A stretch of DNA of 64,000 bases from a virus (IMGVR_UViG_3300027255_000165); one strand, 5' to 3'. Positions 11,805 through 59,031 are shown, counted from the stretch's first letter. Notes: a model not told the origin generated them from the sequence alone. Program-made: numbers and translations.

Positions 11805-11872
11805 GGGGTGTAACTTTACGATACATTGTATATATCATGGCTGTTACGAGGGGCTCTAAATATAATAACTGA

Positions 11873-19366: not shown

Positions 19367-20419
19367 TTAATTACTTAACGGTGCTTTGATTTGCTCATGA
19401 CATTGATATTCGAACAATCGAATATGGTCATGTGTCAAATCCTCTATTTTGCCAGAGATTGGCATGTCAACTGTGACGTATGGTAAGTCAAATGGCTCAC
19501 GTCTAATTTGCTGACTTGCCTGTGAAAGGTGATTGAGATACAAATGAGTATCTCCCAAACTTCCAATCAATTCATCTGGGATCATGTTAACGGCCTTACC
19601 AAGGATGGTAAGTAGAAGTCCGTACGACGCGATATTAAATGGTAGACCCAAGAACGTGTCAACTGAGCGTTGATTCCACATCAATGAAATCTTACGGCGA
19701 GGAAAATCTCTTTCATCAAGATCTTCATGTTCTAGGTTAACTGCATAATAATCATTGTGCCCGATTGATTCAGCCCAGCGCGATCTACGCTCTTTAATAC
19801 TCATTTCGGTGGTGTAAACTTGAAACCCATAGTGACACGGTGGAAGAACCATATTAGGCAACTGCTCAACGTTCCATGCATTAACCATCAATCTGCGAGA
19901 ATCTGGATTAGTCTTCAAGTCGTCAATCAACTGTTGGATCTGATCTATGCCTGGTTTTCTTTTGGTTTGAGTGCCTAAAATGTAATTGGTTTCATATTGA
20001 CTGCCCCATTCACGCCACTGATTACCATAGATTGGTCCTAACTCACCGTTTATTTCAGCAAATTGTTCATTGGTTTTGATAAGTTCAATGAACTCATCCA
20101 TAGACATTTGATTATTAGTCCTACTTTTGTATGCTTTATATGCATCACCGTTCCAAATGTTGCACCCATTTTCAACGAGGAACTTGATGTTAGTATCTCC
20201 CCGAAGGAACCATAGCAGTTCAGTCACCATTGTTTTCCACGCCATCTTTTTAGTGGTCAACAATGGAAATCCAGTTCGCATGTCGTGGCGAACCTGCCTT
20301 CCAAACAAGCTCTTTGTTCCAGTGCCGGTTCTGTCTTCTTTGATCTTACCGTTTTGAACGATATCGCTCAACAGTTTTTGATAGTCTAAATCTAACCAAT
20401 TTGTCATCATTTTACCCAA
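19367..20419 (-). CDS. thyA: Thymidylate synthase ThyA
   Basis: DRTGTGT, ELLWFLRG, GPIYG.QWR, SRR, catalytic LPPCH, QRSVD and PFNIASY (Asn specifies dUMP). The true start may be the ATG at 20410 or 20407. Confidence 0.95.
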   Translation of the reverse strand: MGKMMTNWLDLDYQKLLSDIVQNGKIKEDRTGTGTKSLFGRQVRHDMRTGFPLLTTKKMAWKTMVTELLWFLRGDTNIKFLVENGCNIWNGDAYKAYKSRTNNQMSMDEFIELIKTNEQFAEINGELGPIYGNQWREWGSQYETNYILGTQTKRKPGIDQIQQLIDDLKTNPDSRRLMVNAWNVEQLPNMVLPPCHYGFQVYTTEMSIKERRSRWAESIGHNDYYAVNLEHEDLDERDFPRRKISLMWNQRSVDTFLGLPFNIASYGLLLTILGKAVNMIPDELIGSLGDTHLYLNHLSQASQQIRREPFDLPYVTVDMPISGKIEDLTHDHIRLFEYQCHEQIKAPLSN

Positions 20420-21393: not shown

Positions 21394-22086
21394 TTAGACT
21401 CTAACGCCAGCAACTTTTGCCAATTCTCTTAACTTAGCTTGAGCTTGTTGAAATTTAGAAAATACTTCGTCGTATGTCTTTTTACGAGCTGCAACTTCAT
21501 CGCAACCCTTTTTAAGATCTTTACAAGTCTCTTTTACACCTTGTAATGCTGATCCTGCTTTCATAAAAGCTTTTCTTGATGATTTATATTCACCTTTAGC
21601 AAAAGAATATAGCGCTAACATATCCGATGACATTTTATCCTCTAACTTATCGCATTTAGCAATCACCTTTTCTGCAACTGCATCTGCTTTCGTCTCCTCT
21701 GCTTCGTCTCTCTCTTTCAAAGATTTCATCAAATTTTTCTTATCTGATGGAACGTGTTGCAACATTGCAGACCATTTAGAAGATTGATAACTCAATTCTC
21801 CAATAATTTGAATTGTTTTTGCAACAACTGGTCTAACTTTCTCTTGATCTTTGTCTTTATCACCACCTTTAAGCTTTTCTAATTCAGCTTCTAGATCTAG
21901 TTTGTTACCGTCTAGATCATTTAGGCGAAGTTCAGCCTCATCTTCATCAAAGTCGCCATTGTCCATAGCGTCTTGAACATCTTCCATTTCTTTTTCGATG
22001 TCCTGCAATTCTGCTTGAATCTCTTTAATTCTCTTCTCGTTAGAAGCTTCGAAGATGAATTGTTCAAATAGTTTTACGTGTTTCAT
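21394..22086 (-). CDS. Putative internal head protein, coiled-coil
   Basis: N-terminus MKHVKLFEQFIFE (CTS-like); TATAAATA immediately precedes the ATG. Confidence 0.6.
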   Translation of the reverse strand: MKHVKLFEQFIFEASNEKRIKEIQAELQDIEKEMEDVQDAMDNGDFDEDEAELRLNDLDGNKLDLEAELEKLKGGDKDKDQEKVRPVVAKTIQIIGELSYQSSKWSAMLQHVPSDKKNLMKSLKERDEAEETKADAVAEKVIAKCDKLEDKMSSDMLALYSFAKGEYKSSRKAFMKAGSALQGVKETCKDLKKGCDEVAARKKTYDEVFSKFQQAQAKLRELAKVAGVRV

Positions 22087-22124
22087 TATTTATAGATATG
22101 TTTAATCTTTAGTTGGTTTAATGA

Positions 22125-23132
22125 TTACCAAGCGTAATCCATGTCATTTACTTTTTTAACCTTGTCTTTAATGCTCTTAGCGTAGGTAGAAGCTTCTCTT
22201 GTGTAGTATTTACTACCTTCAGGATTTTTAGCATCGTTAGTGTATCTAACATAACTTTGATACATGTCAAGTATATTAGAAATAACGTTAGCGGCATCTC
22301 TCATAGAGATTTCGCGACCTTTCTTGTCGGTGCCAATGATCATTGACTCGTATCTACCCGCAGTCTTATTCTTAAGAGCGCTTTGAATATGTCCAGTTAC
22401 AGTTTCAATTGCCTTTTCAACCATACCGTCAATATCATCGCTGGCTGCTCTAGTTGCAAGAATCATTTTGTATCTGTTCATGTTCTCCTGTTTGAATTCC
22501 TTATCTGTCATGAATGCTGTTGCGCCTGCTTTAGCAGCTGATCTGCTAGCTTTTTGATCTGCAGCGCTTGGAAGAATAGATGGATCAAACATTAGAACTC
22601 TATCTGAAACCTCAGAAATTCTCTTGATGTTTGATAGACCTGAAGCACCATAACCAGAATGTTGCTTGTCAATGCCTATAGATGAAGCTTCTTTACCGTA
22701 TTTACCGGCATTCTTTAGTTTTGGTTCGTAAGGAGCTGATCTATTCCATCCTCTAGTGTAATCCATTGCAAACATTTCATTTTTACCATTTGCAATGGCC
22801 AAAAGAGTGTTACCTGGAATAGTACCGTAACCGGTGTATTTAGATTGACTGTGATCAGCGTATGGGTTTCCTTTCTCATTATCGGAGATATAGAAAAAGA
22901 TAGCGTTAGGGTGAGCTTTGGTCTTATAAGCCTCAGCTGGGTGTAGTTCAACCACTTGATCGTCAGTAATTTCATCTAGCTTAACCTTAGTGAAATTATA
23001 AACTGCTTTCATTATGTCCTTCCTAGCCGAAGATAGGCCAAGAATAGAAGCCAACTTTGAAGACTTGAATGCTTCGTTAACCTCTAATGACTCATTAACA
23101 AAGCTTTCGAATGTTGTGTGAATCTTATTCAT
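22125..23132 (-). CDS. Putative internal head protein
   Basis: N-terminus MNKIHTTFESFVNESLEVNEA. Confidence 0.55.
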   Translation of the reverse strand: MNKIHTTFESFVNESLEVNEAFKSSKLASILGLSSARKDIMKAVYNFTKVKLDEITDDQVVELHPAEAYKTKAHPNAIFFYISDNEKGNPYADHSQSKYTGYGTIPGNTLLAIANGKNEMFAMDYTRGWNRSAPYEPKLKNAGKYGKEASSIGIDKQHSGYGASGLSNIKRISEVSDRVLMFDPSILPSAADQKASRSAAKAGATAFMTDKEFKQENMNRYKMILATRAASDDIDGMVEKAIETVTGHIQSALKNKTAGRYESMIIGTDKKGREISMRDAANVISNILDMYQSYVRYTNDAKNPEGSKYYTREASTYAKSIKDKVKKVNDMDYAW

Positions 23133-24144
23133 TTTCGTTTACTGTTTTAATTTTAGATAGGATTCTCTGGCCGTACTTCGACAGTGAGATACCATCTTCT
23201 GAAACGTTGAAGTAGTGACGATTTGATTTCGCCCATCTTCTAGAAGCAGTAGAGAATTCCTTAATGATTGTTTCAAATTCTTCAGTCGTTACTTTACCGT
23301 CTGCAATTGCTTCGATGATCTTGTCTCTGACTGGACCAAACTTAGATACTGTGATCTGTGGATAGTTGTCAGTGTAACGTCTTTTTAGAGTGATTTTACC
23401 TTCGGTGATTTGTTCACCTTCTAGGATTACGATAGATGTAAGGCCACCCTTTGTGAATGAATCAACGTCCATTTTGAACTCGTGACCCATGATTTCGCTA
23501 AACATCTTAATCATGCCATAACCTTCAAGGGAAGATGGAGACATGTACGATGACATGTTCATTTGGAAACCACCTTTAACTTTAGAGATTCTTTTCAGAG
23601 CTTTATCAAAGCCAACCTCACTGAACACTTGTTGCATCGCATATCTGATGTCTTCCATGTTGTAACCTTTAGCTTCGTCAATTTCGCCTTCAATCTCAAC
23701 TTCGTTTTCTAGAGATTCTGGTACGCCCATTGCAAATTTGCTTAGATCTGGTTCGTAGTCCATACCAAAGCCGTATCTTACGTAATTAGCGCCTTGAGTA
23801 TCAACGAAAACACATTGACCGTAGTAGTCCTTAAGTTCACCTTGTTCGTGATTCAACCAAAGAATAAAGATCGTTTCAGTAGGTGTGTTTGCAAAATTAG
23901 CATAGATTCCTTTTGGTGCCATTTTACCCCAAACATCCTTAGATGTATAAACTGGAATGTGGGTTAGGTCTAGTTCTTTTTGCTGTGCGTCTTTCAGCTG
24001 AACAGCGTTTGAACCAAAAAGATCAGATGTGTAAGCTGGCTTTCTCTCAATGTTTCTACCACCATAAGTTTTGAACAGGGTATAAGCCTGATCTTCGTTG
24101 TAGAATTCATTTAAGAATGTTCCAAATGACTCAAATACTCTCAT
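23125..24144 (-). CDS. Putative internal head protein, modular
   Basis: N-terminus MRVFESFGTFLNE. Internal acidic junctions IDE/A and ITE/G precede distinct modules. Confidence 0.55.
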   Translation of the reverse strand: MRVFESFGTFLNEFYNEDQAYTLFKTYGGRNIERKPAYTSDLFGSNAVQLKDAQQKELDLTHIPVYTSKDVWGKMAPKGIYANFANTPTETIFILWLNHEQGELKDYYGQCVFVDTQGANYVRYGFGMDYEPDLSKFAMGVPESLENEVEIEGEIDEAKGYNMEDIRYAMQQVFSEVGFDKALKRISKVKGGFQMNMSSYMSPSSLEGYGMIKMFSEIMGHEFKMDVDSFTKGGLTSIVILEGEQITEGKITLKRRYTDNYPQITVSKFGPVRDKIIEAIADGKVTTEEFETIIKEFSTASRRWAKSNRHYFNVSEDGISLSKYGQRILSKIKTVNENE

Positions 24145-24182
24145 TTTTAAGTGTTGTCTTTTTTAATATCTTATTTTATATA

Positions 24183-25361
24183 TTACGCATCTTCTCTTAC
24201 TCTTAGTAGGGCTCCTGACATACCAAAGATGGCTTCTTTACCAGCTCCGTATTGTGATGCAATATCGGTTCCTTGAACCTTCTTCAACCCTGAAGTAATG
24301 TTCATTGCCTCTTTTCTAAAGACAACGAATTTCATTTTAGCGTATTTCTTTTCAACATTTGCAAGACCATCATTGATGTCTTTAACTAGCGATTCAACGC
24401 CTGCTCTAACATATTCGTTCTTTGCAAGCATTCTGTATAGTGCTTCTTCGTTTGAAACGTCAGCCATATTAACTTGCTTAATGATCTTAAATTTACCTGC
24501 TTTAATATCTGCTTCCTTTGCGGGTTCGATAATAAAAGACATGTTTGGATTACCGGGTGAAGTTGATTTCACCTCAATGATATCGTATCCTGTAGACCTA
24601 TTCGCTAATTGCTCTTTTGCAATCTTAATGAAATCAATCACAGAGCTAATAAGTTCTTTTGATACTTCACCTCTAGAAAAATCAGAAGCTGCTGATTTAC
24701 CTTCACCTCTTGAATTTACGGTCGCAGCTGCATTGAAGATTTCAGGGTGCATATCTTTTAGACCTGGAATTGCAACAATCTCTTCTGTGATTTCGGCAAC
24801 GTGTCTCATTTTTCTCAACCATACGAATTGAGAAGCTGCACCTGCATTACCCAATCTGAATGGAGAATGAGAGTCAGCGTATGACTTAACTTCGTATTGT
24901 CCTTTTTCATTGTGTGTTACGTCAAAGGATTCTCCGCCGCCTGAGATTCTAACACCATCAACCACCCAAGCCAACCACAATTCACCAGGACCAATACCCT
25001 TTGATTGCGTATTGAATAGACCATTTGAGAACGAAGATGAATTAACTTCTTTAAGATAGTTAGGCTGTAGGGCCTCAAGGCTCGAATACTTTCCAAGTCC
25101 TTCAACGAAGATTGCAAGATCCTTACCTGACAGGGAATTAAGTGTCTTAATCATGTCGGCAAAAGGTGAACCTCCTGTCCTTTGTAGGTTTTGAAGGTAC
25201 TTATCAAATTGTGCCTTCTTAGAAGAAACCGCTTTAGTAAGAGCAGGGTTCTTAATTCCGTATGCTGTGTATTCTTCAGTCTCGTTGATCAGCTGAAGTT
25301 CTCTTGCAAAATTAGATCTAATTAAATTACTCATTGCTAAACTTGTTGATGAACTGTTCAA
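24183..25361 (-). CDS. Hypothetical protein with a PD-(D/E)xK nuclease-like motif
   Basis: GIGPGELWL...GGGESFDV-x7-YEVKSY; the likely start is Met10. Confidence 0.5.
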   Translation of the reverse strand: MNSSSTSLAMSNLIRSNFARELQLINETEEYTAYGIKNPALTKAVSSKKAQFDKYLQNLQRTGGSPFADMIKTLNSLSGKDLAIFVEGLGKYSSLEALQPNYLKEVNSSSFSNGLFNTQSKGIGPGELWLAWVVDGVRISGGGESFDVTHNEKGQYEVKSYADSHSPFRLGNAGAASQFVWLRKMRHVAEITEEIVAIPGLKDMHPEIFNAAATVNSRGEGKSAASDFSRGEVSKELISSVIDFIKIAKEQLANRSTGYDIIEVKSTSPGNPNMSFIIEPAKEADIKAGKFKIIKQVNMADVSNEEALYRMLAKNEYVRAGVESLVKDINDGLANVEKKYAKMKFVVFRKEAMNITSGLKKVQGTDIASQYGAGKEAIFGMSGALLRVREDA

Positions 25362-27192
25362 AGGTCATCAATTCTTCATTTACTTTTGACTCCGCAGCTG
25401 TCATAGCTTTTAAAAGCTCAGACTGTAGAACTGGGTACATTCCGTGAAGTGACTTTGGTGTCATTCTTTGAAACTCTGTCTTATTATCGGACATCATTGC
25501 GTTTCTAACCGCAGTTGCTGAGATGTCATCATCTGTTCTGTGAATTTCATGCATACCAAACTCAGGTAGAACGTTCAATTGTTCTCTGTACGTTTCTTTG
25601 TATGCCTGTGAAGAGTAAGCTGCCATTCTATCTGTACCTGTACCCCATAAGACTGGTTCGTACTTAGGTCTTAACTCATTGAATAGGGCGTCAATTGCAG
25701 CGAATGGAACAACAATAATATCTTTTAGGAACTTGTATTCCCTTTGAACTGCCTTAAACATTTTCATTTGCATTGCCTCGTCATAAGGTCTTTTGAATGC
25801 ATCTTCCTTTTTAGCCGTCTTTGACTTAACTAGGAATACTACAACTGGTAGGCCGTTCTGATCATGTAGAGACTGAAGAACTTTAGCGTGACCTAGAGTA
25901 AAAGGTTGGAATCTGCCAACAAACATATTTACTTTTTGTTTACCATGTTCTAGGGTCTTAACCTTTAGGGCTTCATTAACTTCTCCTTCTGGAGCATCTT
26001 CCTGAATTGAAGACCACTTCTTAAATGATGTAAAGTCCATTACGTCGTTCTCTTCTAATTTTGCGTCAATCTGCTCGTAAATCTTATCGATGATCTCGTT
26101 TAGCTGTGCAACCATGTCCTCGGTTAGAATATCACTTGCCTTCTCTCTTTTATTTCTAAAAGAAGATAAAACAATTTTGAAAAGCTCAGATAGGATTGGG
26201 TTGTTGACGTATTTTAAGGTTTGTTCGTTTTTCAAAAACGCGGTGTTTAGATTAAAGGCTTCATTCTTTGCGAAATCAGCTGTCTCAAACTTAACACCAA
26301 TATATTTTGCGGCATTAGCCTTAATGTAATCGTTAAATGATTCAGACATGATTTCTATAAATCTTCTGTCTTTCTTTTCTTCAACTAGTTTGTATTGTGA
26401 AAAATCATGGTTTGTGAAGTATTCAATAACGTCTACCATTGTGATTTGATAAACATCAGAAGACTTTCTTTCTGTTTCTTCATTCTTTCTTCTATAATCT
26501 TCTAGCTTGAAAGACTTCATTGATTTGCCATCAACAAACGAAACAACTAAACCATCAATTTCTTCATTAACTGATTCATTCAGCGCAGTTCTAGACATGC
26601 CTGAATTAAAAATGTTATAGATGTCTCTGGTGAATGAACGATTTTCGTATACTTTTTCAAATTCATTATCGTTCATTTCTAGAATTTTGATCAATTGCTC
26701 CTTCTGGAACATCGTCAGCATGCCTTCGAAGATCACAGGTGGCTTTTGAACATCAAGTTTCTTTGCCCACTTGTTTAGGACCTCAGTGTCTCTAATCACC
26801 TTAGAAACCCTGCCTGATTCGTTAAGAACCTGGATATGCGTTAGAATTAAATTATTCTTAGGAAGAAGAGCGTACTTAAAATTTGGAGTTTCATTTTCAA
26901 TCAGATAATCAAAACCAAACTTCCAATCCTTCGGCATGTCGCTCTTCATTTCATCACCTAAACCTTGAAAGTGACGAATAGCATTTTCATAAAATCTAAC
27001 GATAGTACGATCTACAATATCCATAGCTCTTTCAGAACCTGATTTGTAGTACTTGTTGGTTAGATCATCTCTTCTGACGTGAAATGATGAAGCAGCGATC
27101 TTCTCAACAGCGTGAACCTTTTGGGTTAACATTGCCATGAAGTTTTCGCGATTCGTATCGTTGAAGTGATCTCTAAGTTTAGGTAGTGCCAT
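25327..27192 (-). CDS. Fusion of a degenerate RNA-ligase-fold domain and a C-terminal HxGH nucleotidyltransferase (phage cytidylyltransferase-like)
   Basis: N-terminal VEKIAASS, FGFDY, PPVIFEG, IDGLVV and FKL. C-terminal VGRFQPFTLGH, GTDR and ISATAVR. Confidence 0.7.
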   Translation of the reverse strand: MALPKLRDHFNDTNRENFMAMLTQKVHAVEKIAASSFHVRRDDLTNKYYKSGSERAMDIVDRTIVRFYENAIRHFQGLGDEMKSDMPKDWKFGFDYLIENETPNFKYALLPKNNLILTHIQVLNESGRVSKVIRDTEVLNKWAKKLDVQKPPVIFEGMLTMFQKEQLIKILEMNDNEFEKVYENRSFTRDIYNIFNSGMSRTALNESVNEEIDGLVVSFVDGKSMKSFKLEDYRRKNEETERKSSDVYQITMVDVIEYFTNHDFSQYKLVEEKKDRRFIEIMSESFNDYIKANAAKYIGVKFETADFAKNEAFNLNTAFLKNEQTLKYVNNPILSELFKIVLSSFRNKREKASDILTEDMVAQLNEIIDKIYEQIDAKLEENDVMDFTSFKKWSSIQEDAPEGEVNEALKVKTLEHGKQKVNMFVGRFQPFTLGHAKVLQSLHDQNGLPVVVFLVKSKTAKKEDAFKRPYDEAMQMKMFKAVQREYKFLKDIIVVPFAAIDALFNELRPKYEPVLWGTGTDRMAAYSSQAYKETYREQLNVLPEFGMHEIHRTDDDISATAVRNAMMSDNKTEFQRMTPKSLHGMYPVLQSELLKAMTAAESKVNEELMTFEQFINKFSNE

Positions 27193-27194
27193 TT

Positions 27195-28484
27195 TTATCT
27201 TCCGTATTTAATAATACCCATTAGCTGGTTGATTGCAGCAAAGGTGCCAGTTAGCTTATATATTTTACCCTTATACTTGAACACTAGACCTTCAGAAGGA
27301 ATGATTGAATCAATTCCACCAATTCTTGAAAGTCTGTCAAGTTCAGCTTCAACCTTTTGAATTTGCTTAACGTCTCCGCCTTTCTTAATCTTACCCGCCT
27401 CTGTTCTAATCTGATTGTGAAGTCTTTGCATTTCCTGATCAGGTGAAGCAGCCAAGAAGTTTGAAGCATTCTTTAGAACCTCAGAACCAAACTCTAGGAA
27501 AAGATCTTCAAATGGTCTAATGTTTTCTTTGTATTTCTTACCAGCATCCATCTTATCGTATTGCTTGATCTTATCCATACCTGCAGCGTCAACGAGTTTG
27601 GCCATGGCTCTAAAGTCCATGCCTTGTTTGTTGTTATAGGCCCATCTCTGAAGAAGACCTTCTTTTACGTCTTGTGTAAGGTTAGGGAATGAAGCATCGA
27701 TCTCTTCTCTCCACCACATTTCATGATAACGTGAAACCTCGTCTGAATCAGAAAGCTTGTAACGATTCTTAAGGTCTTCAATCTTCTTCATGAAATAAGG
27801 TAGCTTGGCAGAAAAGTCTTGGTGCTTTCTCAGAACAAGAACCTGTGGAGGAATGATCGTGAATGTTTTACCAATGTGAGCATTAACGTCTTGTAGAATC
27901 TTTGTAAGCTCTTTAGCTGCTCCAGGACCAGACTCACCAGTAATGTTTCCGTTACCGTCAGTGTATTTAATTCCGTGGAACTGAATTACATCTTTATCGT
28001 AATTGATGACATTAGAGTTACCCGAAAAGATTAACTCCATATTCATGAAGTTCTTACCGCCGTCAAAGTATTTTTCTTGTGAATCTGACTTCAATTTGCC
28101 TAGGGCTGAAGCTAAATCATTAGCTGCCATAGTAAATGTCTTACGAACTCCCTCTGAAGGGTGATCAGCAAACATTGAAGTAACTCCACTAAGGTCCAAT
28201 GGGTTTTTCAACTGACCTGCATTTCTTGCAAACATTGTAACGCCATCTTTAACTGTTGCAAAGATGTTTTGACCATCTGTTTTTTCAGTTGGATCTTCTT
28301 CGAAGTTCAATTCTCCCTTTAGACCTGCTTCAATCATGGCTTTAAAGTCGCCAAACGTTAGATCTTTGTCATCAAACGGATGTGACATGTGACCAGCAGC
28401 ACCACCCTCTAAAACGAGGTCAGAGCCGGCCAAGCTTTGACCTGCTCTTTCAACGATGAATTGGTTATAAGTTAATAATTTCAT
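27195..28484 (-). CDS. Ligase-fold nucleotidyltransferase (DUF6267-like)
   Basis: GGAAGHMSHPFD, motif I TEKTDGQN, NMELIF, SEGLVFK and YKLTG. N-terminus MKLLTYNQFIVE. Confidence 0.7.
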   Translation of the reverse strand: MKLLTYNQFIVERAGQSLAGSDLVLEGGAAGHMSHPFDDKDLTFGDFKAMIEAGLKGELNFEEDPTEKTDGQNIFATVKDGVTMFARNAGQLKNPLDLSGVTSMFADHPSEGVRKTFTMAANDLASALGKLKSDSQEKYFDGGKNFMNMELIFSGNSNVINYDKDVIQFHGIKYTDGNGNITGESGPGAAKELTKILQDVNAHIGKTFTIIPPQVLVLRKHQDFSAKLPYFMKKIEDLKNRYKLSDSDEVSRYHEMWWREEIDASFPNLTQDVKEGLLQRWAYNNKQGMDFRAMAKLVDAAGMDKIKQYDKMDAGKKYKENIRPFEDLFLEFGSEVLKNASNFLAASPDQEMQRLHNQIRTEAGKIKKGGDVKQIQKVEAELDRLSRIGGIDSIIPSEGLVFKYKGKIYKLTGTFAAINQLMGIIKYGR

Positions 28485-28765
28485 TAGATTTTATCTTGAA
28501 ATACTATTTTACCGGTAGCATCTTCAAGTGTGAAATGATAACCGGACGTTGGGTAACGCTTTTTAAGAGTTGTCCAGTTCGCTGGAACGGCGTCGGGAAT
28601 GTTAATTACTTCCTGATGAATGACTGCTCCAACCTGGGCGCCTTTAGCGTGAACTACTAGTGTCACTGGGAAGGCAGCATCTTTCAATGATTTCTTAATC
28701 TTTGAGAAAGATACTTCTTCATTAACAAATGCTTCGTACAATTTTACGCGTTTCATAGTGACCAT
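28484..28765 (-). CDS. Small putative internal head protein
   Basis: MKRVKLYEAFVNEE N-terminus. Confidence 0.55.
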   Translation of the reverse strand: MVTMKRVKLYEAFVNEEVSFSKIKKSLKDAAFPVTLVVHAKGAQVGAVIHQEVINIPDAVPANWTTLKKRYPTSGYHFTLEDATGKIVFQDKI

Positions 28766-29055
28766 GGGTGATTTTTAGCAACAAACTTTTTACCGTGAAT
28801 AAGGCCTAGAACATCTCTGTCCTTTTCACTGTGTTGTAATTTGAATGTATCGTGATCATATTTCCAATGAGCCTCTTTAGAACCTTTACGAAAACCGTAT
28901 GTCATATCCTGCTTCTTGTCATAAGATACCATGTTATCAGGGTGAAGCTCCTTGTATGATTCAACAAATTTGTTGTACTCATAAGGAGTCATCTGATTAT
29001 AGGTCATGAAAATACCTTCAGAGATGAACTGTTCATATAGTTTAACGTGTTTCAT
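28753..29055 (-). CDS. Small putative internal head protein
   Basis: MKHVKLYEQFISEG N-terminus. Confidence 0.55.
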   Translation of the reverse strand: MKHVKLYEQFISEGIFMTYNQMTPYEYNKFVESYKELHPDNMVSYDKKQDMTYGFRKGSKEAHWKYDHDTFKLQHSEKDRDVLGLIHGKKFVAKNHPWSL

Positions 29056-29070
29056 AGGGCTAATATAACC

Positions 29071-29099
29071 AAAAAAACCGACCCGGAAAAATCCGGGTC
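29071..29099 (-). terminator. Terminator after the 616-aa gene, overlapping a promoter-like element
   Basis: GACCCGGA-4nt-TCCGGGTC followed by GGTTTTTTT on the minus strand. Confidence 0.75.
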
Positions 29100-29108
29100 A
29101 GATTATTT

Positions 29109-30994: not shown

Positions 30995-32503
30995 CTATAT
31001 ATCACCCTCAAAGGTTACCCTTTTAATTTCATATCTAAACTTTTCTTGTCTATAGATCTTTTGGCGGGCAATACCGTGTTTATATAGGTAGTTGTGATGG
31101 CCTTCGTATGTAATATCGTCAACGAAGTCAATGATATTTACAGCATCCTTTGATTCATGTTGTCTAAGGCCACGACCAATTGACTGTCTAATAATGATCT
31201 CGGATTTGAAAGACTCGGTGAAAAAGATGTTGTGAATCTTTTTAATTGAGATACCTGTCGAGAACGTTCCATAAGACGCGACGATGATAATGTCATCACC
31301 TTGTTCCATCTTCTTTTTATATTCTTCTCTAATATCCTTATCAGTTCCTCCATCAACATAGTAGACTGCCTTGTTACTTCTTCTACGAAGTTCTTCGTAT
31401 AGTCTTTTACCGTGTTCAATTCTATGGAATAGCACAAGTGAGTTGTTTGGAATCTTAGCGATTACTTTACTAATAAAGTTTAATCTTCCAGGTGATTGTA
31501 TAATGTAGTTTTGTTCAAGCTGAAATACGTCTTTATTTTCGTATCTGTTTGTTGACAATTCCATAAACGCCTTACGTGCTGTTTCTGGTGCGTAATTCAT
31601 TTCAATTACTTTCACATTACACTTTGCAATATGACCTTCATCTTGTAAAAAAGCGGCCTTAACCTCAGTGATAAGAGGTCCAGTATGTGACATTAAGGTT
31701 AAACGATCTAGTGTGTTATCCTTTGGAATAGTACCTGATAAACCAAACCTATAGGTCGCGTTTTCACACTTCTGTAGAATGGTTTTGATTGAGGCTGATT
31801 TGGCCTTGTGCGTTTCATCGACAATCACACAATCAAACTGTTCAAAGAAGTCTTTTCCCTTTTTAACTAGCGATTGATATGTTCCTATAACAATGTTTCT
31901 AGAGTCTTTAATCTTTTGACCAGCATAAACTTGCTGAATCATCATTTGAATTCTATTCTCGTAATTGTATTCTCCAAAGTCCTCAGTTGCTTGAACAACC
32001 AGGGATACGTTAGGTACGATAAACAAAATCTTTTTTGCCTTTTGTTTCTCTAGCATATATGCAACTGCCATGAAAGAAATCATTGTCTTACCGGCTGATG
32101 TAGCAAGCTCAGATAGAGAGCGTCTGAATTTTAGAATGTTAAATGCGGCTTCTATTTGATAGTCCCTTGGAGTCATTTCTGATCTTTCAAAAAACTCAAG
32201 AGACCATTCTTCGAATCCTTCTGATGTTATGTCTCTGTCAAACAGCCGAGTAATGCCATTGATCTTAAGCTCATAGTTGTAGCTCTTACAGATCTTCATC
32301 ACTTCTTGCCATAAACCGGAAGGAATCCACTTATCGTCTTTTACATACGAGATGTAACCGTCCCAAACACCCCTTTTAACTAGGGGGTTGAAACGCCAAC
32401 CCTCGATTCGACGAGTCATCGATATGTTCAACTGCTCAAGTTCAAGATCAGTTGCCTGATCAATTCTTAAGAACTGAGCGTTGTCAGTTAAAGTTAGCTC
32501 CAC
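30995..32503 (-). CDS. uvsW: SF2 DNA helicase UvsW
   Basis: PRDYQ, ATSAGKT, VDETH, GLSGT, ASYGTFSTGISI and QSIGRGLR. Confidence 0.93.
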   Translation of the reverse strand: MELTLTDNAQFLRIDQATDLELEQLNISMTRRIEGWRFNPLVKRGVWDGYISYVKDDKWIPSGLWQEVMKICKSYNYELKINGITRLFDRDITSEGFEEWSLEFFERSEMTPRDYQIEAAFNILKFRRSLSELATSAGKTMISFMAVAYMLEKQKAKKILFIVPNVSLVVQATEDFGEYNYENRIQMMIQQVYAGQKIKDSRNIVIGTYQSLVKKGKDFFEQFDCVIVDETHKAKSASIKTILQKCENATYRFGLSGTIPKDNTLDRLTLMSHTGPLITEVKAAFLQDEGHIAKCNVKVIEMNYAPETARKAFMELSTNRYENKDVFQLEQNYIIQSPGRLNFISKVIAKIPNNSLVLFHRIEHGKRLYEELRRRSNKAVYYVDGGTDKDIREEYKKKMEQGDDIIIVASYGTFSTGISIKKIHNIFFTESFKSEIIIRQSIGRGLRQHESKDAVNIIDFVDDITYEGHHNYLYKHGIARQKIYRQEKFRYEIKRVTFEGDI

Positions 32504-33180: not shown

Positions 33181-34259
33181 ACGTACAAGGCATCTAAACG
33201 TGAATCTGTAAAATACTGATTGATTTTGCTTAGAGGTGAGGTGTTCTTAATTTCAAAACACTTCTTAACCAGATCGTTTAAATCCTTTATACTATCTGAA
33301 TATATATTCATTTTCGTATCGTCTAGGAATTTAGACCACATGAAAACCTGTTTACCCTTCTTTAGTTTCTCTAACATCTTCTTTTTACCCGTTTCGTCAT
33401 TATCAAACATGTAACGGATTGTTGGAATCTCGTCTAGCTCGGTAGTTGAACGACCAGCCGTTGCAAGAGCAATCGAATTGCTCATAAACTTTGCGTCAAG
33501 AGGTCCTTCAAACACTGTTACTGGACGACCCATATCAGCGTACATTAGACCAAACAGAGTTGATAGTTTATTAACGGCAATGACATCATCTCCTTCAACT
33601 GGAAATGGACGATTCATTTCTTCATACAATTTTTCAAGATCATACGTCAAATACTTTGATCGTGCATTCTTGCCTAATTGACGACTTTGACAACTTAAGA
33701 TTTTGCCGTCAGGTGTCTTGTTTAGAATCCACAATCTTTTGCCCATATCTGAAAAAAGAAAGTCATCGATGTGACGATGTAACAATCTTCCTCTTAGATA
33801 GAACCATGCAAAATCGCCAGGTTGAATAGATTTGGCCTTAAAGAAGGCCTTGAAATCCTGTACGGGTATTGCAAGTTTTATTGCATTATTATAAACCGAA
33901 TGCTGAAGAGTTTGAATGTCTTTAACGTCAATCTTCTTTTCCCTAATGTATTCGATGATTTGAACTGTTTCATCAGTTGAACCTGCTCGTAAACCATGAT
34001 CCTTTAAGAATGTATTCAGATCAGTGTGATGACTACAATTATAACAGTGAAACTGAAGAGTATCCCAAAAAAGATTACCTCTCTTTTTGGTATGATCCTC
34101 TGTGGAATCCCCACAATAAGGACATGCCAGGTTCAAACGACCTGACATTTCCTTAATCATTTGTTTGGGAGAGGCAGAGTGGTTTTCTACAACCACCTGC
34201 TTCACCAAACTTCTGATTTTTTGCTTTAAATCTTCTGATAAATTAGATGTCGAGGTCAT
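33177..34259 (-). CDS. gp61: DNA primase (T4 gp61-like)
   Basis: Zn finger CPYCGDS...HCYNC; TOPRIM VFEGPLDA and MFDND. Confidence 0.9.
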   Translation of the reverse strand: MTSTSNLSEDLKQKIRSLVKQVVVENHSASPKQMIKEMSGRLNLACPYCGDSTEDHTKKRGNLFWDTLQFHCYNCSHHTDLNTFLKDHGLRAGSTDETVQIIEYIREKKIDVKDIQTLQHSVYNNAIKLAIPVQDFKAFFKAKSIQPGDFAWFYLRGRLLHRHIDDFLFSDMGKRLWILNKTPDGKILSCQSRQLGKNARSKYLTYDLEKLYEEMNRPFPVEGDDVIAVNKLSTLFGLMYADMGRPVTVFEGPLDAKFMSNSIALATAGRSTTELDEIPTIRYMFDNDETGKKKMLEKLKKGKQVFMWSKFLDDTKMNIYSDSIKDLNDLVKKCFEIKNTSPLSKINQYFTDSRLDALYV

Positions 34260-35166
34260 TCAAGAATGATTCCAAGTCATCATCATCGCTCACCTTAGCA
34301 GTGCTTCCTGCTGGTTCTGAAGATACATTATCCAAGTCGAACGCAGCTTCTACTTCAGGAGTATATGCTTTCTTTGCAACGGGAGCTGATTTTGAAGTCA
34401 CAGCTGTCATTGCTTCGCTTGGGTTAACGTATTGACCAAGTACTGAATTTACAAAGTCACGTGTTTGATCGTCCCATACTTTGTATTCATATACTTCTAG
34501 CTTTGGAGCCTTATCCAATTCAGTCTTGATGGATGCCATCGCTTCCTTGGTACGTTCAGCTGCTTTACCATCTACGATAACTGCAGATCGAGAAGAAGAG
34601 AACTTAGACTTATCATAGTTGTTGTACTCGCCTTGGCGTGTAATAATCAACTCGAAGTTCTTACCTTCAAACAAGTCAAATACTTGAGTTGACTCGCCGA
34701 ATGAAGGCTTCAATTCCTCATCAATCTTTTCTTTGATCTTGTAACCAAATTTGAAGATCATGTATTGACCTTCTAGCTCAGGACGTTGTGGATCCTTGAT
34801 GATTTTAATGAGCGAATAGTACTGCTCACGGCGCTTTAGCTTTTCAGACATCTTGCGATCAACGGCTGAGTCTGATTTGCGAAGGCGAAAGAATGCATCC
34901 TGAATTGGACACTTTTCACCGACTGATGCAGGTGAATCGATCAAACGACCAGTGCCAGAGGCGTCAGTCATCCAATGGACATACTTGCGAACCAGTGATT
35001 TACGTGGGTTTTCAGGGTTTGGTACGAAGCGAATAAGTGCTTTGTAAGTACCGTCTTTACCGTCATCTGCGGTAGGTTTGTAGATAACCTCTTCTCGTGT
35101 GTTTGAGGCTGTCTCGTGTGTGTCTACGTCTGAGACACTCAGATTAAAAATGTCAAAATCTGCCAT
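34243..35166 (-). CDS. gp32: Single-stranded DNA-binding protein (T4 gp32-like)
   Basis: ALIRFVP, HW...CPI, FKFGYKIKEKI, DLFEGKNF and an acidic tail DDDDLESFLNDLDI. Confidence 0.88.
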   Translation of the reverse strand: MADFDIFNLSVSDVDTHETASNTREEVIYKPTADDGKDGTYKALIRFVPNPENPRKSLVRKYVHWMTDASGTGRLIDSPASVGEKCPIQDAFFRLRKSDSAVDRKMSEKLKRREQYYSLIKIIKDPQRPELEGQYMIFKFGYKIKEKIDEELKPSFGESTQVFDLFEGKNFELIITRQGEYNNYDKSKFSSSRSAVIVDGKAAERTKEAMASIKTELDKAPKLEVYEYKVWDDQTRDFVNSVLGQYVNPSEAMTAVTSKSAPVAKKAYTPEVEAAFDLDNVSSEPAGSTAKVSDDDDLESFLNDLDI

Positions 35167-35461: not shown

Positions 35462-35568
35462 ATTCTATATATCCCGCCCGTAGAGATTTGTTTACACCAA
35501 ACTTATTATCTGATTATATTTAATGGTCTCTGAAACAATCGGGCCCAGGAAGCATAGAAGGATTGGTT

Positions 35569-45672: not shown

Positions 45673-45732
45673 TAAACTGTTAATATGTTATTAAGCGCTT
45701 GAGGTATATATCAACCACCTAATAACACCAGC

Positions 45733-51645: not shown

Positions 51646-54345
51646 TTATTTAATTGTTAAAGCGTTTTTCACTAAAGTATTAGTGTTTCCATTAACATCA
51701 GTAACTTCGAGTTCAAGGGTGTAATCACCTTTGTCCTCGAAGAGATATGTTAACCACTTATTACTGTAGTATATATCAGACATCGATGTACTGTTATTTC
51801 GTATCGTCCATCTGTATTTATTCTTTCCAGGCATCATTGATTTGTCTGCACTGAAAGTCATGTGAGTTAGTAGTTCAATTTCAGCATATGCTTCTGCAAT
51901 CTGAATATCATTGAATGTTGGATTATATGGCGTGTAATTAACTTTACCAGTAATTGTTACTGAACCAACCGAAGCTACCGCTTCATACACATCTTCAAAA
52001 TCGTATCTATTAGAATAATCCTTGCCGACCGCTAAAATGTATTTACAATAATCAATACCATTGGAAATTATTCCATCACCATCAACGTCTTTAAATACAG
52101 GATTATATGTAAATTTAGATAGAATTGGATCAGTCGATGCGTTCAAATCATTTGCAGCTGATTGCCATGCTGGAATATCGGTAGGATCAGTCAAATCAAC
52201 TGTAAATACATAAGTGCTATATTCGTACTGGTATGTCTGATAGTTAAAGTGTTCAATAGTAAATGAAGAACCTGGATCAGCATTTTCAATTTTGAATGAC
52301 GCAGTTAGGTCAGAACCGACTCTAGTTGCATCCCACCATGTGTGTTTACCGTCATTCCATTCATGTTTTCTAAGGTTTCTCCAGAAGTATGGACCTGGGG
52401 TTTCACCAAACCCGGTGGTTGATGAAGTGTCAACGTATCTTCTAACAGTTGAGAAGTTAACGCCTTGACTGTCATCGTTAACATAGTTCGCTCTATCTAA
52501 AGTCAAGTACAGTGTACCAATTTCTTGGTCAACAGTGTCGTTGTTTTGTTGTGGGAAACCCCATGAACCTCCTGCAACACCCCACTTAAAGTTTGAAGAT
52601 TGCCAATCATAGTACTCTCTGTCCATCCACCTGTACATGCCGTAAATCTCAAGTGACTTCATCTTAGCATGAATAGAGTTAGGATATGTCTCATTAGATA
52701 CATGGTTGAATAGATTAGTGTGTTCAATCTTAACATCATAAGATCCTTCATAAGGTAGAGCAATCGCTACCTTTAACATATCTGCAGTTTCACCTGTTAA
52801 AACCTGTGACCAACCCTTAGGACCTGTAATTGTCCAAGTCGTTTCATACACATCTCTCTTCCACCAGTTGTTCCAAGTCAGGTAAGTTACTGCGTCAGCA
52901 TCAATCCAAGTGAACTCAGCGTCTTCCCATGTATCAGGGAAGGACTTACACTCCAACTGAACCGGAGCTCCCACTGGAATATCTTCAAAAGATTCTTGGA
53001 ACGTTGATCTATTTAATTCGTAGTAATTGGTATAGAAGTCTTCAGTATCAGAATATAGGGCTGACATATCAACATCTGACAGTGATGAAAAGTCTTGTGT
53101 TTTACCAGTGTAAAGATCTGAAACCAATCTCAAATCCTCAATAAAAGGTTCTGTCTGGTGAATCTCAATCTTTGGGTCAACACCCGCTACGATAGTATCG
53201 ATTGGATTCTGATTGTTCCAAATGTTGGTATTATATGAATAGAAGAAGTCCGCTTCACCAATGATGTCAATGATCTTGGCATTCAGTGGAAGGTACTCTC
53301 TTTGTAGTTTGTTCTTAAGACCGTATAACTTGATTAGAACTTCGTCAGCGGTGAAGTCAAAAACTTCATCAACCTGTGGAGTGTCCCACTGATCAAAGTT
53401 ACCGTTAGGTGTGTTCAACTTATAGTACAGTCCAAAACGTGAAGTCTTTTTGTATGAAGATGAAGGTAGTTGAATACCCTTTAGTTTGTTAGATACGTAA
53501 GAACCTTTTGACGAAGATGGAATTTCAAACGCCTTTAGTTTACCAAACATTGGTGATCTATCGTCAACCACCAACCAATACTCCTTTAGTGTTAGATTGT
53601 TATATCCAAAGAATTTAATAGCGTTAATCAGCGCCTTATATGTACCAATGAACGGTTTAATGTTTGATAGTTCAAGTAGAAGTTCCTTTCTCTTACGGTT
53701 TAAGAGTTTCCAGTCAGTACCGACCTCGTTAATGTCATGATCTTTGAATAGGAATTGATCCGCAGTTGAAAGTGTTGCGCCAAAGTTTGAAAGTAGAACA
53801 CCCAGTCTTTCGTCCTCTCCAACTGTTTCACCGTAAAAGTGGATGATAGCGACCACGTGGTCGTCAATAGTGTCAATCAAATATAGGTCTCTACGATGTG
53901 AATCATCGCGTTCTGAGTTCAGAGCGACGTTAACCTGTAAAGCGTCTTTAGCGTATGAAGTTCCAAGGGTGTGAATACCTGATGAAGTTGAAACCGCAAC
54001 TGAGTTTGGTTGAGGATCTAAGATCTGAGAAGTTAGAGTTTCAACGTAAGGATCACCATCAACCAACTTAACACCAACCAAATTAATGTCCTTTGAAGAC
54101 TGATACCAATCTCTCCACTCCAACTTAAATTGAGAACCAATGTTAGACCCGACTGGTTTAACCAATACAGAAGCGCCAAGGGAGTTGTACGCCTCTTCTA
54201 GGATGAACAGGGACACTGACTCATATAATCCAGTAGATACCTCATCCATGTGAATGTATCCCTCAAACACTTCTGATGTGCTGTCGTATTCCAACTGCAC
54301 TTCATAGTTTGTACCATTAAAGAATCTTAGTCCTGAGTATCTCAT
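51646..54345 (-). CDS. Baseplate wedge-like protein with C-terminal PKD/Ig-like domains
   Basis: 899 aa. IKPFIGTYKALINAIKFFG; Ig-like segments EGSYDVKIE and KGDYTLELEVTDVNG. Confidence 0.6.
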   Translation of the reverse strand: MRYSGLRFFNGTNYEVQLEYDSTSEVFEGYIHMDEVSTGLYESVSLFILEEAYNSLGASVLVKPVGSNIGSQFKLEWRDWYQSSKDINLVGVKLVDGDPYVETLTSQILDPQPNSVAVSTSSGIHTLGTSYAKDALQVNVALNSERDDSHRRDLYLIDTIDDHVVAIIHFYGETVGEDERLGVLLSNFGATLSTADQFLFKDHDINEVGTDWKLLNRKRKELLLELSNIKPFIGTYKALINAIKFFGYNNLTLKEYWLVVDDRSPMFGKLKAFEIPSSSKGSYVSNKLKGIQLPSSSYKKTSRFGLYYKLNTPNGNFDQWDTPQVDEVFDFTADEVLIKLYGLKNKLQREYLPLNAKIIDIIGEADFFYSYNTNIWNNQNPIDTIVAGVDPKIEIHQTEPFIEDLRLVSDLYTGKTQDFSSLSDVDMSALYSDTEDFYTNYYELNRSTFQESFEDIPVGAPVQLECKSFPDTWEDAEFTWIDADAVTYLTWNNWWKRDVYETTWTITGPKGWSQVLTGETADMLKVAIALPYEGSYDVKIEHTNLFNHVSNETYPNSIHAKMKSLEIYGMYRWMDREYYDWQSSNFKWGVAGGSWGFPQQNNDTVDQEIGTLYLTLDRANYVNDDSQGVNFSTVRRYVDTSSTTGFGETPGPYFWRNLRKHEWNDGKHTWWDATRVGSDLTASFKIENADPGSSFTIEHFNYQTYQYEYSTYVFTVDLTDPTDIPAWQSAANDLNASTDPILSKFTYNPVFKDVDGDGIISNGIDYCKYILAVGKDYSNRYDFEDVYEAVASVGSVTITGKVNYTPYNPTFNDIQIAEAYAEIELLTHMTFSADKSMMPGKNKYRWTIRNNSTSMSDIYYSNKWLTYLFEDKGDYTLELEVTDVNGNTNTLVKNALTIK

Positions 54346-56815: not shown

Positions 56816-56835
56816 GGCTATCTTTATATATCACA

Positions 56836-58969: not shown

Positions 58970-59031
58970 GCAGTAGACACTATCTTACTATTTAAGTTTA
59001 TATATCTACCGCACCGGGTAGCGGTTTAGAC

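Follow-up and report, generated by a model that had tools for sequence, protein, structure and literature searches.

A 64,000-nucleotide stretch of viral DNA (IMGVR_UViG_3300027255_000165), here called the window, carries two adjacent genes whose products hold three predicted nucleotidyltransferase domains. The first gene encodes a 429-residue protein, P2. The second encodes a 621-residue protein in which a domain resembling T4 RNA ligase 2 (the Rnl2-like domain) is joined by a linker to a nucleotidyltransferase of the HxGH (HIGH) superfamily. The source of this two-gene module is a large T4-like marine phage. Every gene in the stretch around the module is on the minus strand, and 2 nt separate the end of the P2 open reading frame (ORF) from the start of the 621-residue ORF. 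A first-pass annotation had singled out this combination of two ligase folds and an HxGH enzyme as a possible injected enzyme system. Both ORFs lie exactly where it placed them, and the observation as a whole is confirmed. The analyses described below suggest a conserved phage module with three catalytic parts that may well join polynucleotide ends, most likely those of RNA. Its features are as follows; a slash marks a putative cleavage position, and CTS denotes the capsid targeting sequence of T4 or a motif resembling it.

27195-28484, minus strand: P2 ligase gene, an ORF of 429 residues; predicted RNA-ligase-fold enzyme (covalent nucleotidyltransferase) that belongs to a large, uncharacterised family of viruses
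28449-28484, minus strand: N-terminal tag of P2, MKLLTYNQFIVE/R; resembles the T4 CTS MKTYQEFIAE/A and ends in phi-x-E
28272-28289, minus strand: P2 motif I, TEKTDG, with K68 as the presumed AMP-accepting lysine
27315-27842, minus strand: all-helical insertion of ~175 residues in P2 (residues ~215-390), between motif IIIa and motif IV
27246-27296, minus strand: P2 motifs IV and V, SEGLVFKYKGKIYKLTG, with E398, G399, K410, T412 and G413 in invariant columns
25327-27192, minus strand: fusion gene, 621 residues; Rnl2-like ligase domain, linker, HxGH adenylyltransferase domain and C-terminal tag
26473-27192, minus strand: Rnl2-like nucleotidyltransferase domain, residues 1-240; motif I EKIAASSF, then FGFDY, IDGLVV and FKL
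25993-26460, minus strand: helical C-terminal region of the ligase part, residues 245-400, from the secondary structure of the model; ends in the VMDFTSFKKW helix
25999-26040, minus strand: internal CTS-like helix, VMDFTSFKKW, kept in 106 of 107 orthologues
25969-25980, minus strand: linker site VNE/A, residues 405-408, in a disordered linker; fits the phi-x-E cleavage consensus of the T4 gp21 type
25378-25950, minus strand: HxGH (HIGH) nucleotidyltransferase domain, residues 415-605; PF01467, GRFQPFTLGH, ISATAVR
25330-25371, minus strand: C-terminal tag of the 621-residue protein, LMTFEQFINKFSNE, preceded by AAE/S and VNE/E sites

The arrangement is conserved, and co-occurrence in related phages, which the first-pass annotation had named as a check, is borne out. 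Of 47 loci from the same clade in IMG/VR (58-71% identity), 44 have P2, the Rnl2-like domain and the HxGH domain in this order on one strand, and the other three are cut by contig ends. In three of the 44 the HxGH enzyme has its own ORF ~2.2 kb further on. The P2/fusion pair is always downstream of a UvsW-type helicase. The same order recurs in a distant 462-kb megaphage, LR756500, where the two genes adjoin (33-36% identity). In a more distant group (40-46% identity) P2 forms the C-terminal half of ORFs of 600-1,270 residues whose N-termini read IYPGRFQPMGxHHA; these are HxGH domains fused to the N-terminus of P2, and the same fusion is present in Microcystis phage Mel-JY01. Most distant lineages have this single-ORF HxGH-P2 fusion. 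Some relatives of the 621-residue protein reach 800-1,130 residues with a long additional C-terminal region (L004:7266-10610, P0392-P0412), and some of these long forms have no GRFQP motif and thus no HxGH domain. A scan of contigs from cellular genomes returned only 11 contigs of metagenome-assembled genomes (MAGs), probably mis-binned phage DNA. The closest match in cellular bins is a 19-kb contig in a Flavobacteriaceae MAG (L089, PAUJ01000002.1; 58% identity), which either hints weakly at the host group or is mis-binned phage DNA.

In P2, the motifs TEKTDG (residues 66-71), SEGLVFK (397-403) and YKL (409-411) reported by the first-pass annotation are all present. They are not chance resemblances, nor are those reported in the 621-residue protein, because the residues concerned vary little or not at all among the 47 and 30 homologues aligned, respectively. 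Across 47 diverse P2 homologues E67, K68, D70, G71, R87, N88, E150, Y162, R280, E398, G399, K410, T412 and G413 are invariant. The motif set of a covalent nucleotidyltransferase is thus complete: KxDG, a motif III acid (E150), EG and the motif V Lys. A further motif, EGGAAGHMxHPFDD, is nearly invariant in the same alignment and lies upstream of motif I.

The AlphaFold2 model of P2 (mean predicted local distance difference test, pLDDT, 88; predicted template modelling score 0.83) resembles RNA ligases. When it was compared exhaustively, and independently of Foldseek, with 48,161 PDB representatives, ranks 1-13 were all polynucleotide ligases (Z 6.7-9.3), among them the Naegleria gruberi RNA ligase (NgrRnl, Rnl5; 9.3), REL1 (8.5), T4 Rnl2 (8.3) and fungal Trl1 (8.2). 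VIA-align seeded by Foldseek gave the Naegleria enzyme (9.6), Trl1 (8.7), T4 Rnl1 (8.4), and REL1 and T4 Rnl2 (both 8.3); the first 37 rows were all ligases, DNA ligases scored 5-7.6 and capping enzymes ~5. A capping-enzyme reading was rejected on this difference (~5 against 8-9.6 for RNA ligases). Foldseek against the PDB gave weak E-values (1e-2), yet nearly all rows were RNA ligases. The ligase alignments span residues 24-423 with ~185-190 residues aligned, and they skip the helical insertion. On the basis of this model P2 is a covalent nucleotidyltransferase of the RNA-ligase fold.

P2 shares all of the motifs (KxDG, the Glu of motif III, EG and Lys) with its best structural matches, Rnl5, T4 Rnl1 and Trl1 (Z 9.3-9.6, 8.2-8.4 and 8.2-8.7 over the two rankings), but is only 12-17% identical to them. 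It differs further in having the 175-residue helical insertion before motif IV in place of an appended N- or C-terminal domain, and in the additional EGGAAGHMxHPFDD motif. In the model, motifs IV and V are at the extreme C-terminus with no domain beyond motif V, a topology that would be unusual for the ligase superfamily. No Pfam or PHROG family covers P2, and searches of Pfam, PHROG and PDB sequences gave no significant match. PF09511, the Rnl1/Trl1 family, does not match P2 and finds a different gene, in one relative only; PF09414 (RNA_ligase) is weakly matched by 4 of the 47 family members (7e-4). Pfam DUF6267 (PF19782), which had been suggested for neighbouring clusters, was rejected, as it matched none of the related contigs G001, G002 and G006, Mel-JY01 or the alignment members. 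Matches of both ligase parts to CFTR, ribosomal protein eS6 and FliS in PDB sequence and profile searches were dismissed as spurious.

The P2 family is almost exclusively viral and numbers 1,898 representatives at 50% identity, of which 507 fall below 1e-30, with 1,657 clusters at 90% among the candidates scored. The shared module begins at about residue 21, just past the N-terminal tag, and most relatives have it as the C-terminal portion of larger proteins, 500-2,000 residues long. In 32 such P2 fusion proteins, in which E67, K68, D70, G71, E150, E398, G399 and K410 are again invariant, the Pfam matches include P-loop kinases (Zeta_toxin in five proteins, AAA_33 in four), the head of a poly(A)/CCA polymerase, RNase T and an ADP-ribosyltransferase. 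Judged by these domain matches, P2 is otherwise fused to RNA-end enzymes, the ADP-ribosyltransferase excepted.

The Rnl2-like domain is, as far as the models allow comparison, structurally closer to a known enzyme than P2 is. The model of residues 1-405 (pLDDT 84) has T4 Rnl2 (gp24.1; PDB 2hvr, 2hvq, 1s68) as its best match, with a Foldseek E-value of 1.5e-8 and probability 1.0 for 2hvr, and a VIA Z of 11.3 over 188 aligned residues within 1-235. Rnl5, Trl1 and Rnl1 are no more than 1 Z unit away, so the top rank is effectively a tie. Motif I is EKIAASSF in the window and EKIHGTNF in T4, an acid-Gly motif IV is present in the fusion, and both proteins have a helical region after motif V. The window's domain differs from T4 Rnl2 in that other residues stand for the G and H/D of motif I, the acid of motif III has changed position (FGFDY against FGEF), motif V contains a single Lys, an HxGH enzyme is fused to it and many relatives lack the motif I Lys. 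The motif I pattern of the Rnl2 family, E-K-x-(H/D)-G, does not fit the window's EKIAAS. Family libraries gave no match for residues 1-405; PF09414 gave none up to E 1 for the window's 621-residue protein and one weak match (0.07) among 30 orthologues, and a precomputed PF09414 match is present in two distant relatives of the Rnl2-like part. A comparison by hhalign of the Rnl2-like profile with the T4 Rnl2 sequence returned nothing, so that the mapping of residues to Rnl2 motifs is by eye and by structure rank only.

The first-pass annotation had called this second fold degenerate on the strength of its motifs EKIAA (30-34), FGFDY (92-96), IDGLVV (212-217) and FKL (228-230), all of which were found. 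In the 30 orthologues E30 and K31 are invariant and D95, D213 and K229 nearly so, and therefore the window's copy is less degenerate than that description implied: the Lys nucleophile is retained, as are the acids of motifs III and IV and the Lys of motif V, and only the DG is lost. Family-wide the term is apt. In a wider sample of 108 sequences, found by a search from a relative of the Rnl2-like part, ~45 have EQxDGS, EMxDGS or ENxDGS (for example EQLDGS, EMIDGS and ENLDGS) and mostly Gln at motif III, so that ~40% have Q, M or N for the Lys. The canonical state (EKMDGS, motif III Glu, aromatic IIIa, motif IV Glu and motif V Lys) occurs in 33 sequences, 32 of which are fused to GRFQP. The window's type, with K retained and DG lost, is a third state.

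These states differ in their neighbours. At 80 loci of the canonical subfamily with an Rnl2-like-HxGH fusion (73 with EK[MI]DGS, 7 with ENLDG[SP]), no P2 module is present within 10 kb in any of the 80, and P2 is absent from four complete genomes of huge phages (319-430 kb) that have the Rnl2-like-HxGH fusion. At loci that do have P2, motif I of the Rnl2-like domain is KIAA/KIQA or has Q, M or N, and the degenerate forms examined all adjoin P2. The HxGH enzyme is the constant partner, since it is fused either to P2 or to the Rnl2-like ligase. The two ligase folds were also compared as possible paralogues, and no similarity was found by BLASTP or hhalign. The helical domain is inserted in P2 and C-terminal in the Rnl2-like part; given these different topologies and the empty hhalign result, they are not treated as simple paralogues.

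The fusion partner was correctly recognised as an HxGH nucleotidyltransferase: GRFQPFTLGH (426-435) and ISATAVR (557-563) are present, and PF01467 scores 36.6 bits against a cut-off of 21 (E 6e-9). The G, F, P, H, S and R columns are invariant across 26 sequences of the domain, and PHROG matches are phrog_3041 and phrog_395 ('cytidyltransferase'). In profile searches of the PDB the nicotinamide mononucleotide (NMN) adenylyltransferase (NMNAT) of M. jannaschii, 1f9a, ranks first (2.3e-8), followed by phosphopantetheine adenylyltransferase (PPAT), NadM and NadD, and by sequence the domain appears equally near to NMNAT and PPAT. It has PF01467, GRFQPF..GH and ISxTxxR in common with PPAT and with the NadM-type NMNATs of M. 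jannaschii (MJ0541), Synechocystis and Francisella. Unlike them, the window's clade has T-x-G-H (TLGH, residues 432-435) in place of H-x-G-H, no Nudix domain was found in the 621-residue protein by Pfam search, relatives have no NadV, and the domain invariably occurs fused or adjacent to a ligase fold. A predicted complex of P2 residues 21-429 with the HxGH domain was given a score of 0.00, for which the tool offers no verdict.

These features suggest how the three parts could work together. P2 would adenylylate itself on K68 and donate the AMP to an end that has a 5'-phosphate. Residues 1-400 of the 621-residue protein would probably serve mainly the sealing step or substrate binding, and the HxGH enzyme would probably handle an adenylylated phosphate for the ligases, either a dinucleotide cofactor or a 5'-adenylylated end. 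There is a small chance that the NMNAT-like domain acts directly on nucleic-acid ends and not on a vitamin nucleotide, because a 5'-phosphorylated RNA end is chemically an analogue of NMN. It could then convert ATP and 5'-phosphorylated RNA to AppRNA and pyrophosphate, or reverse abortive AppRNA by pyrophosphorolysis, and the fused ligase fold would need only to bind and seal ends. Such an activity would explain the constant partnership with two unrelated ligase types, the tolerated loss of the Lys and the missing NadV. NMNATs have been proposed as RNA-end enzymes without evidence (PMC8131947).

Accompanying genes were sought in related contigs that are 45-100% complete. A separate canonical ATP-dependent DNA ligase (PF01068) is present in relatives, and no NAD-dependent LigA was found in them. 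The pair is therefore unlikely to be the replicative ligase, a reading rejected for this clade on account of the PF01068 enzyme.

Of the functions offered by the first-pass annotation, the rebuilding of NAD is disfavoured. The HxGH domain could in principle be a true NMN adenylyltransferase that counters host NADase defences, with the ligase folds using NAD+ or being passengers. Its nearest sequence relatives of known structure are NMNATs (2qjo, besides 1f9a), its two signatures fit NadM-type enzymes, and phages are documented to salvage NAD+ through NadM/NadV (PMC9503650). All NadM phages are reported in the same paper to have NadV as well, however, and a search of five related contigs, including one that is 100% complete, revealed no NAPRTase/NadV (PF04095). 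The absence of a Nudix fusion, the nearly equal PPAT score and the tight, repeated fusion to ligase folds, which such a role leaves unexplained, also make an NAD+ rescue kit quite unlikely.

The first-pass interpretation is supported in part: the ligase folds, the HxGH partner, their co-occurrence and the likeness of the tags to the T4 CTS stand. What is missing in most relatives is a visible set of end-healing enzymes for tRNA repair. This absence is among several points that weigh against RNA end-joining by the module. No KptA/Tpt1 was found in the relatives, and a Pnk-type kinase is present in only one of five, where it stands beside a canonical Rnl1. The 5'-OH and 2',3'-cyclic phosphate ends left by anticodon nucleases would thus have no visible healing step. 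Since these contigs are 45-100% complete, such absences are indicative only. Motif V of P2 has a single Lys and not KxK, which is also true of the Rnl2-like fold. The substrate is not fixed by fold similarity at Z 8-11, and DNA ends, RNA:DNA hybrids or a protein acceptor are possible. Finally, fold, motifs, synteny, fusion patterns and tag conservation are what was observed, and it is from these that we infer activities, substrate, cleavage and packaging.

Two rival readings of the ligase folds were weighed with these points. A classic tRNA repair system like that of T4 Pnkp plus Rnl1 would have P2 rejoin anticodon loops severed by host nucleases, with the Rnl2-like part closing nicks in duplex RNA. 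The leading fold matches do include T4 Rnl1, fungal Trl1 and T4 Rnl2, and the kinase, CCA/poly(A) polymerase and RNase T domains fused to P2 elsewhere would suit such a system. The scarcity of Pnk-type kinases and of KptA and the unexplained role of the HxGH domain make it unlikely. Ordinary NAD+ salvage and the NAD-dependent 2'-phosphate route are both disfavoured, because the relatives have neither NadV nor KptA/Tpt1. Alternatively, the ligase folds could pass AMP to a protein or small molecule (NMPylation), as the one Lys in motif V, the lack of an OB or other known nucleic-acid-binding C-terminal domain, and the lack of an identified fold relative for the helical insertion of P2 might suggest. 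This is very unlikely, as the nearest structures are all polynucleotide ligases and the fusion partners elsewhere are RNA-end enzymes. Polynucleotide end-joining remains our preferred reading. In one relative (G005:C1:118163-119420) a canonical AAA_33 kinase is found beside a T4 Rnl1-type ligase, in addition to the P2/Rnl2-like pair, so that this genome has up to three genes of RNA-ligase fold.

RNA-ligase-associated repair modules of the Pnkp/Hen1 type were reportedly described by Burroughs and Aravind in 2016. No description of an RNA ligase-NMNAT fusion in phages was found in the literature, although that 2016 paper may contain one. Like RlaP (PMC12776372) or the Pnkp/Hen1-type modules, the window's module couples an RNA ligase genomically to a second nucleotidyltransferase; it differs from them in that the partner belongs to the HxGH (HIGH) superfamily and not to Pol-beta.

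Both genes of the module carry CTS-like tags, a claim of the first-pass annotation that is borne out by their close likeness to the T4 CTS and by their conservation in orthologues. The T4 CTS is MKTYQEFIAE, cleaved after the Glu (PMC8442874; PMC9026906). The N-terminal tag pattern of P2, scored as [FYWLMI]xx[FWY][ILVMF]x[ED] over the first 24 residues, recurs in 115 of 120 orthologues. Seven of the 56 window proteins have it, where ~2 would be expected overall, and six of the seven are encoded within the cassette at 21394-29055. At the other end of the module, the C-terminal MTFxQF tail is retained by 104 of 107 orthologues that are fused and by 12 of the 13 that stand alone. HxGH enzymes encoded as a separate ORF have an N-terminal tag, MDNLKNIQDFITEK, instead of the C-terminal one; tags are thus reassigned when the domains are split into separate ORFs.

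A CTS-like motif followed by VNE/A between the domains of the fusion was also verified, as 25968-26040 encodes residues 385-408 (VMDFTSFKKWSSIQEDAPEGEVNE/A). The model has pLDDT <50 at residues 400-412, and a phi-x-E-[AGS] site is present in the linker in 107 of 107 fused orthologues. Stand-alone forms of the ligase part, of 426 residues, stop just past this site. A prohead protease of the gp21 type (Peptidase_S77) is encoded in four related contigs (G002, G003, G004 and G006).

These T4-type targeting tags and phi-x-E sites lead us to propose that the proteins would enter the prohead, where a gp21-type protease would separate the three enzymes by cleavage, and that they would then be injected along with the DNA. 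We judge delivery by the capsid apart from end-joining, and by analogy with T4 we regard it as evenly balanced; packaging is plausible. The likeness to T4 internal proteins and Alt, which are CTS-directed, gp21-processed cargo, extends to the 10-12-residue N-terminal tag, its aromatic and aliphatic positions and phi-x-E end, the grouping of several tagged genes and the gp21-type protease in relatives. The differences are that the predicted cargo consists of nucleic-acid enzymes, that one tag is C-terminal and that the predicted cut would split a two-enzyme polyprotein.

It is possible, though somewhat less likely than not, that the tags have nothing to do with the capsid and that these are cytoplasmic early or middle enzymes of the replication region, the F-x-x-F-phi motif being a docking peptide for another hub or a habit of the lineage. 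The genes adjoin UvsW, thymidylate synthase and other replication genes and not head genes. The tag may be at either terminus, and no tested precedent for a C-terminal CTS was found in the literature. The internal CTS-like helix is also conserved in canonical relatives that have no terminal tags, and for this reason it may be a structural helix of the ligase C-terminal domain and not a tag. Against this alternative stand the close match to MKTYQEFIAE/A including the phi-x-E site, the clustering of the tagged genes, the invariable phi-x-E-[AGS] in a disordered linker and the protease in relatives, which are consistent with capsid delivery.

The P2 family is large (~1,900 clusters at 50% identity) and viral, has no significant match in Pfam or PHROG and has a predicted ligase topology that is unusual. 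Its pairing with an NMNAT-like enzyme is obligate and is repeated by another, unrelated type of ligase, which points to a coupling between HIGH-superfamily and ligase chemistry of which no description was found in the literature. If the tags work as in T4, nucleic-acid-joining enzymes would be injected ready-made, and this would bypass the inability to translate repair enzymes after the host has cut tRNAs or mRNAs. Were the HxGH domain to act on ends and the capsid to deliver it, it would be the first HIGH-superfamily enzyme on polynucleotide ends, in the first injected end-joining kit. RNA sequencing and the production of circular RNA could also draw on new RNA ligases and pre-adenylylating enzymes as reagents.

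The module belongs to a gene unit, o28753, o28484, the P2 ligase gene and the fusion gene, that directly follows a strong terminator:

29078-29101, minus strand: intrinsic terminator with a 10-bp stem and T7 tail, which ends the gene upstream

A single copy of the T4 late promoter, TATAAATA, is present in the window, fewer than chance would give. The sequence immediately upstream of o28753 is GGTTATATTA. Directly downstream, a gene for 383 residues without family match (24183-25334, minus strand) overlaps the fusion gene by 8 nt; it is present in 1 of 47 related loci and is therefore seen as a variable slot inside the conserved cassette. A tagged protein of 339 residues (23125-24144) has a C-terminal segment, ITLKRRYTDNYPQITVSKFGPVRDKIIEAIADGKVTTEEFETIIKEFS, that recurs in the stand-alone HxGH proteins of three relatives, where it is N-terminal and follows the tag (L033:10486-11856, L034:10221-11339 and L041:10471-11586). 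The segment looks like a small mobile domain.

Further from the module, the thymidylate synthase (19367-20419, minus strand) has 350 residues and the 266-position Pfam profile covers residues 12-349, so it must contain an insertion of roughly 70-80 residues. The protein encoded at 34243-35166 (minus strand) has a strongly acidic C-terminal tail, DDDDLESFLNDLDI, like single-stranded-DNA-binding proteins, and in the locus of one relative a gp32 gene (PF08804) is found upstream of the UvsW helicase. The motif GATATATA occurs seven times in the window, always on the coding strand (minus strand; 11829-11836, 30996-31003, 35466-35473, 45705-45712, 51770-51777, 56825-56832 and 58999-59006), where 2.2 copies are expected and at least seven were reached in 2 of 100 shuffles. 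Several copies are just 5' of gene starts, for example those at 45672, 56815 and 58969 and that of the first cassette gene, o29109. The motif is a candidate phage promoter element, possibly a late one.

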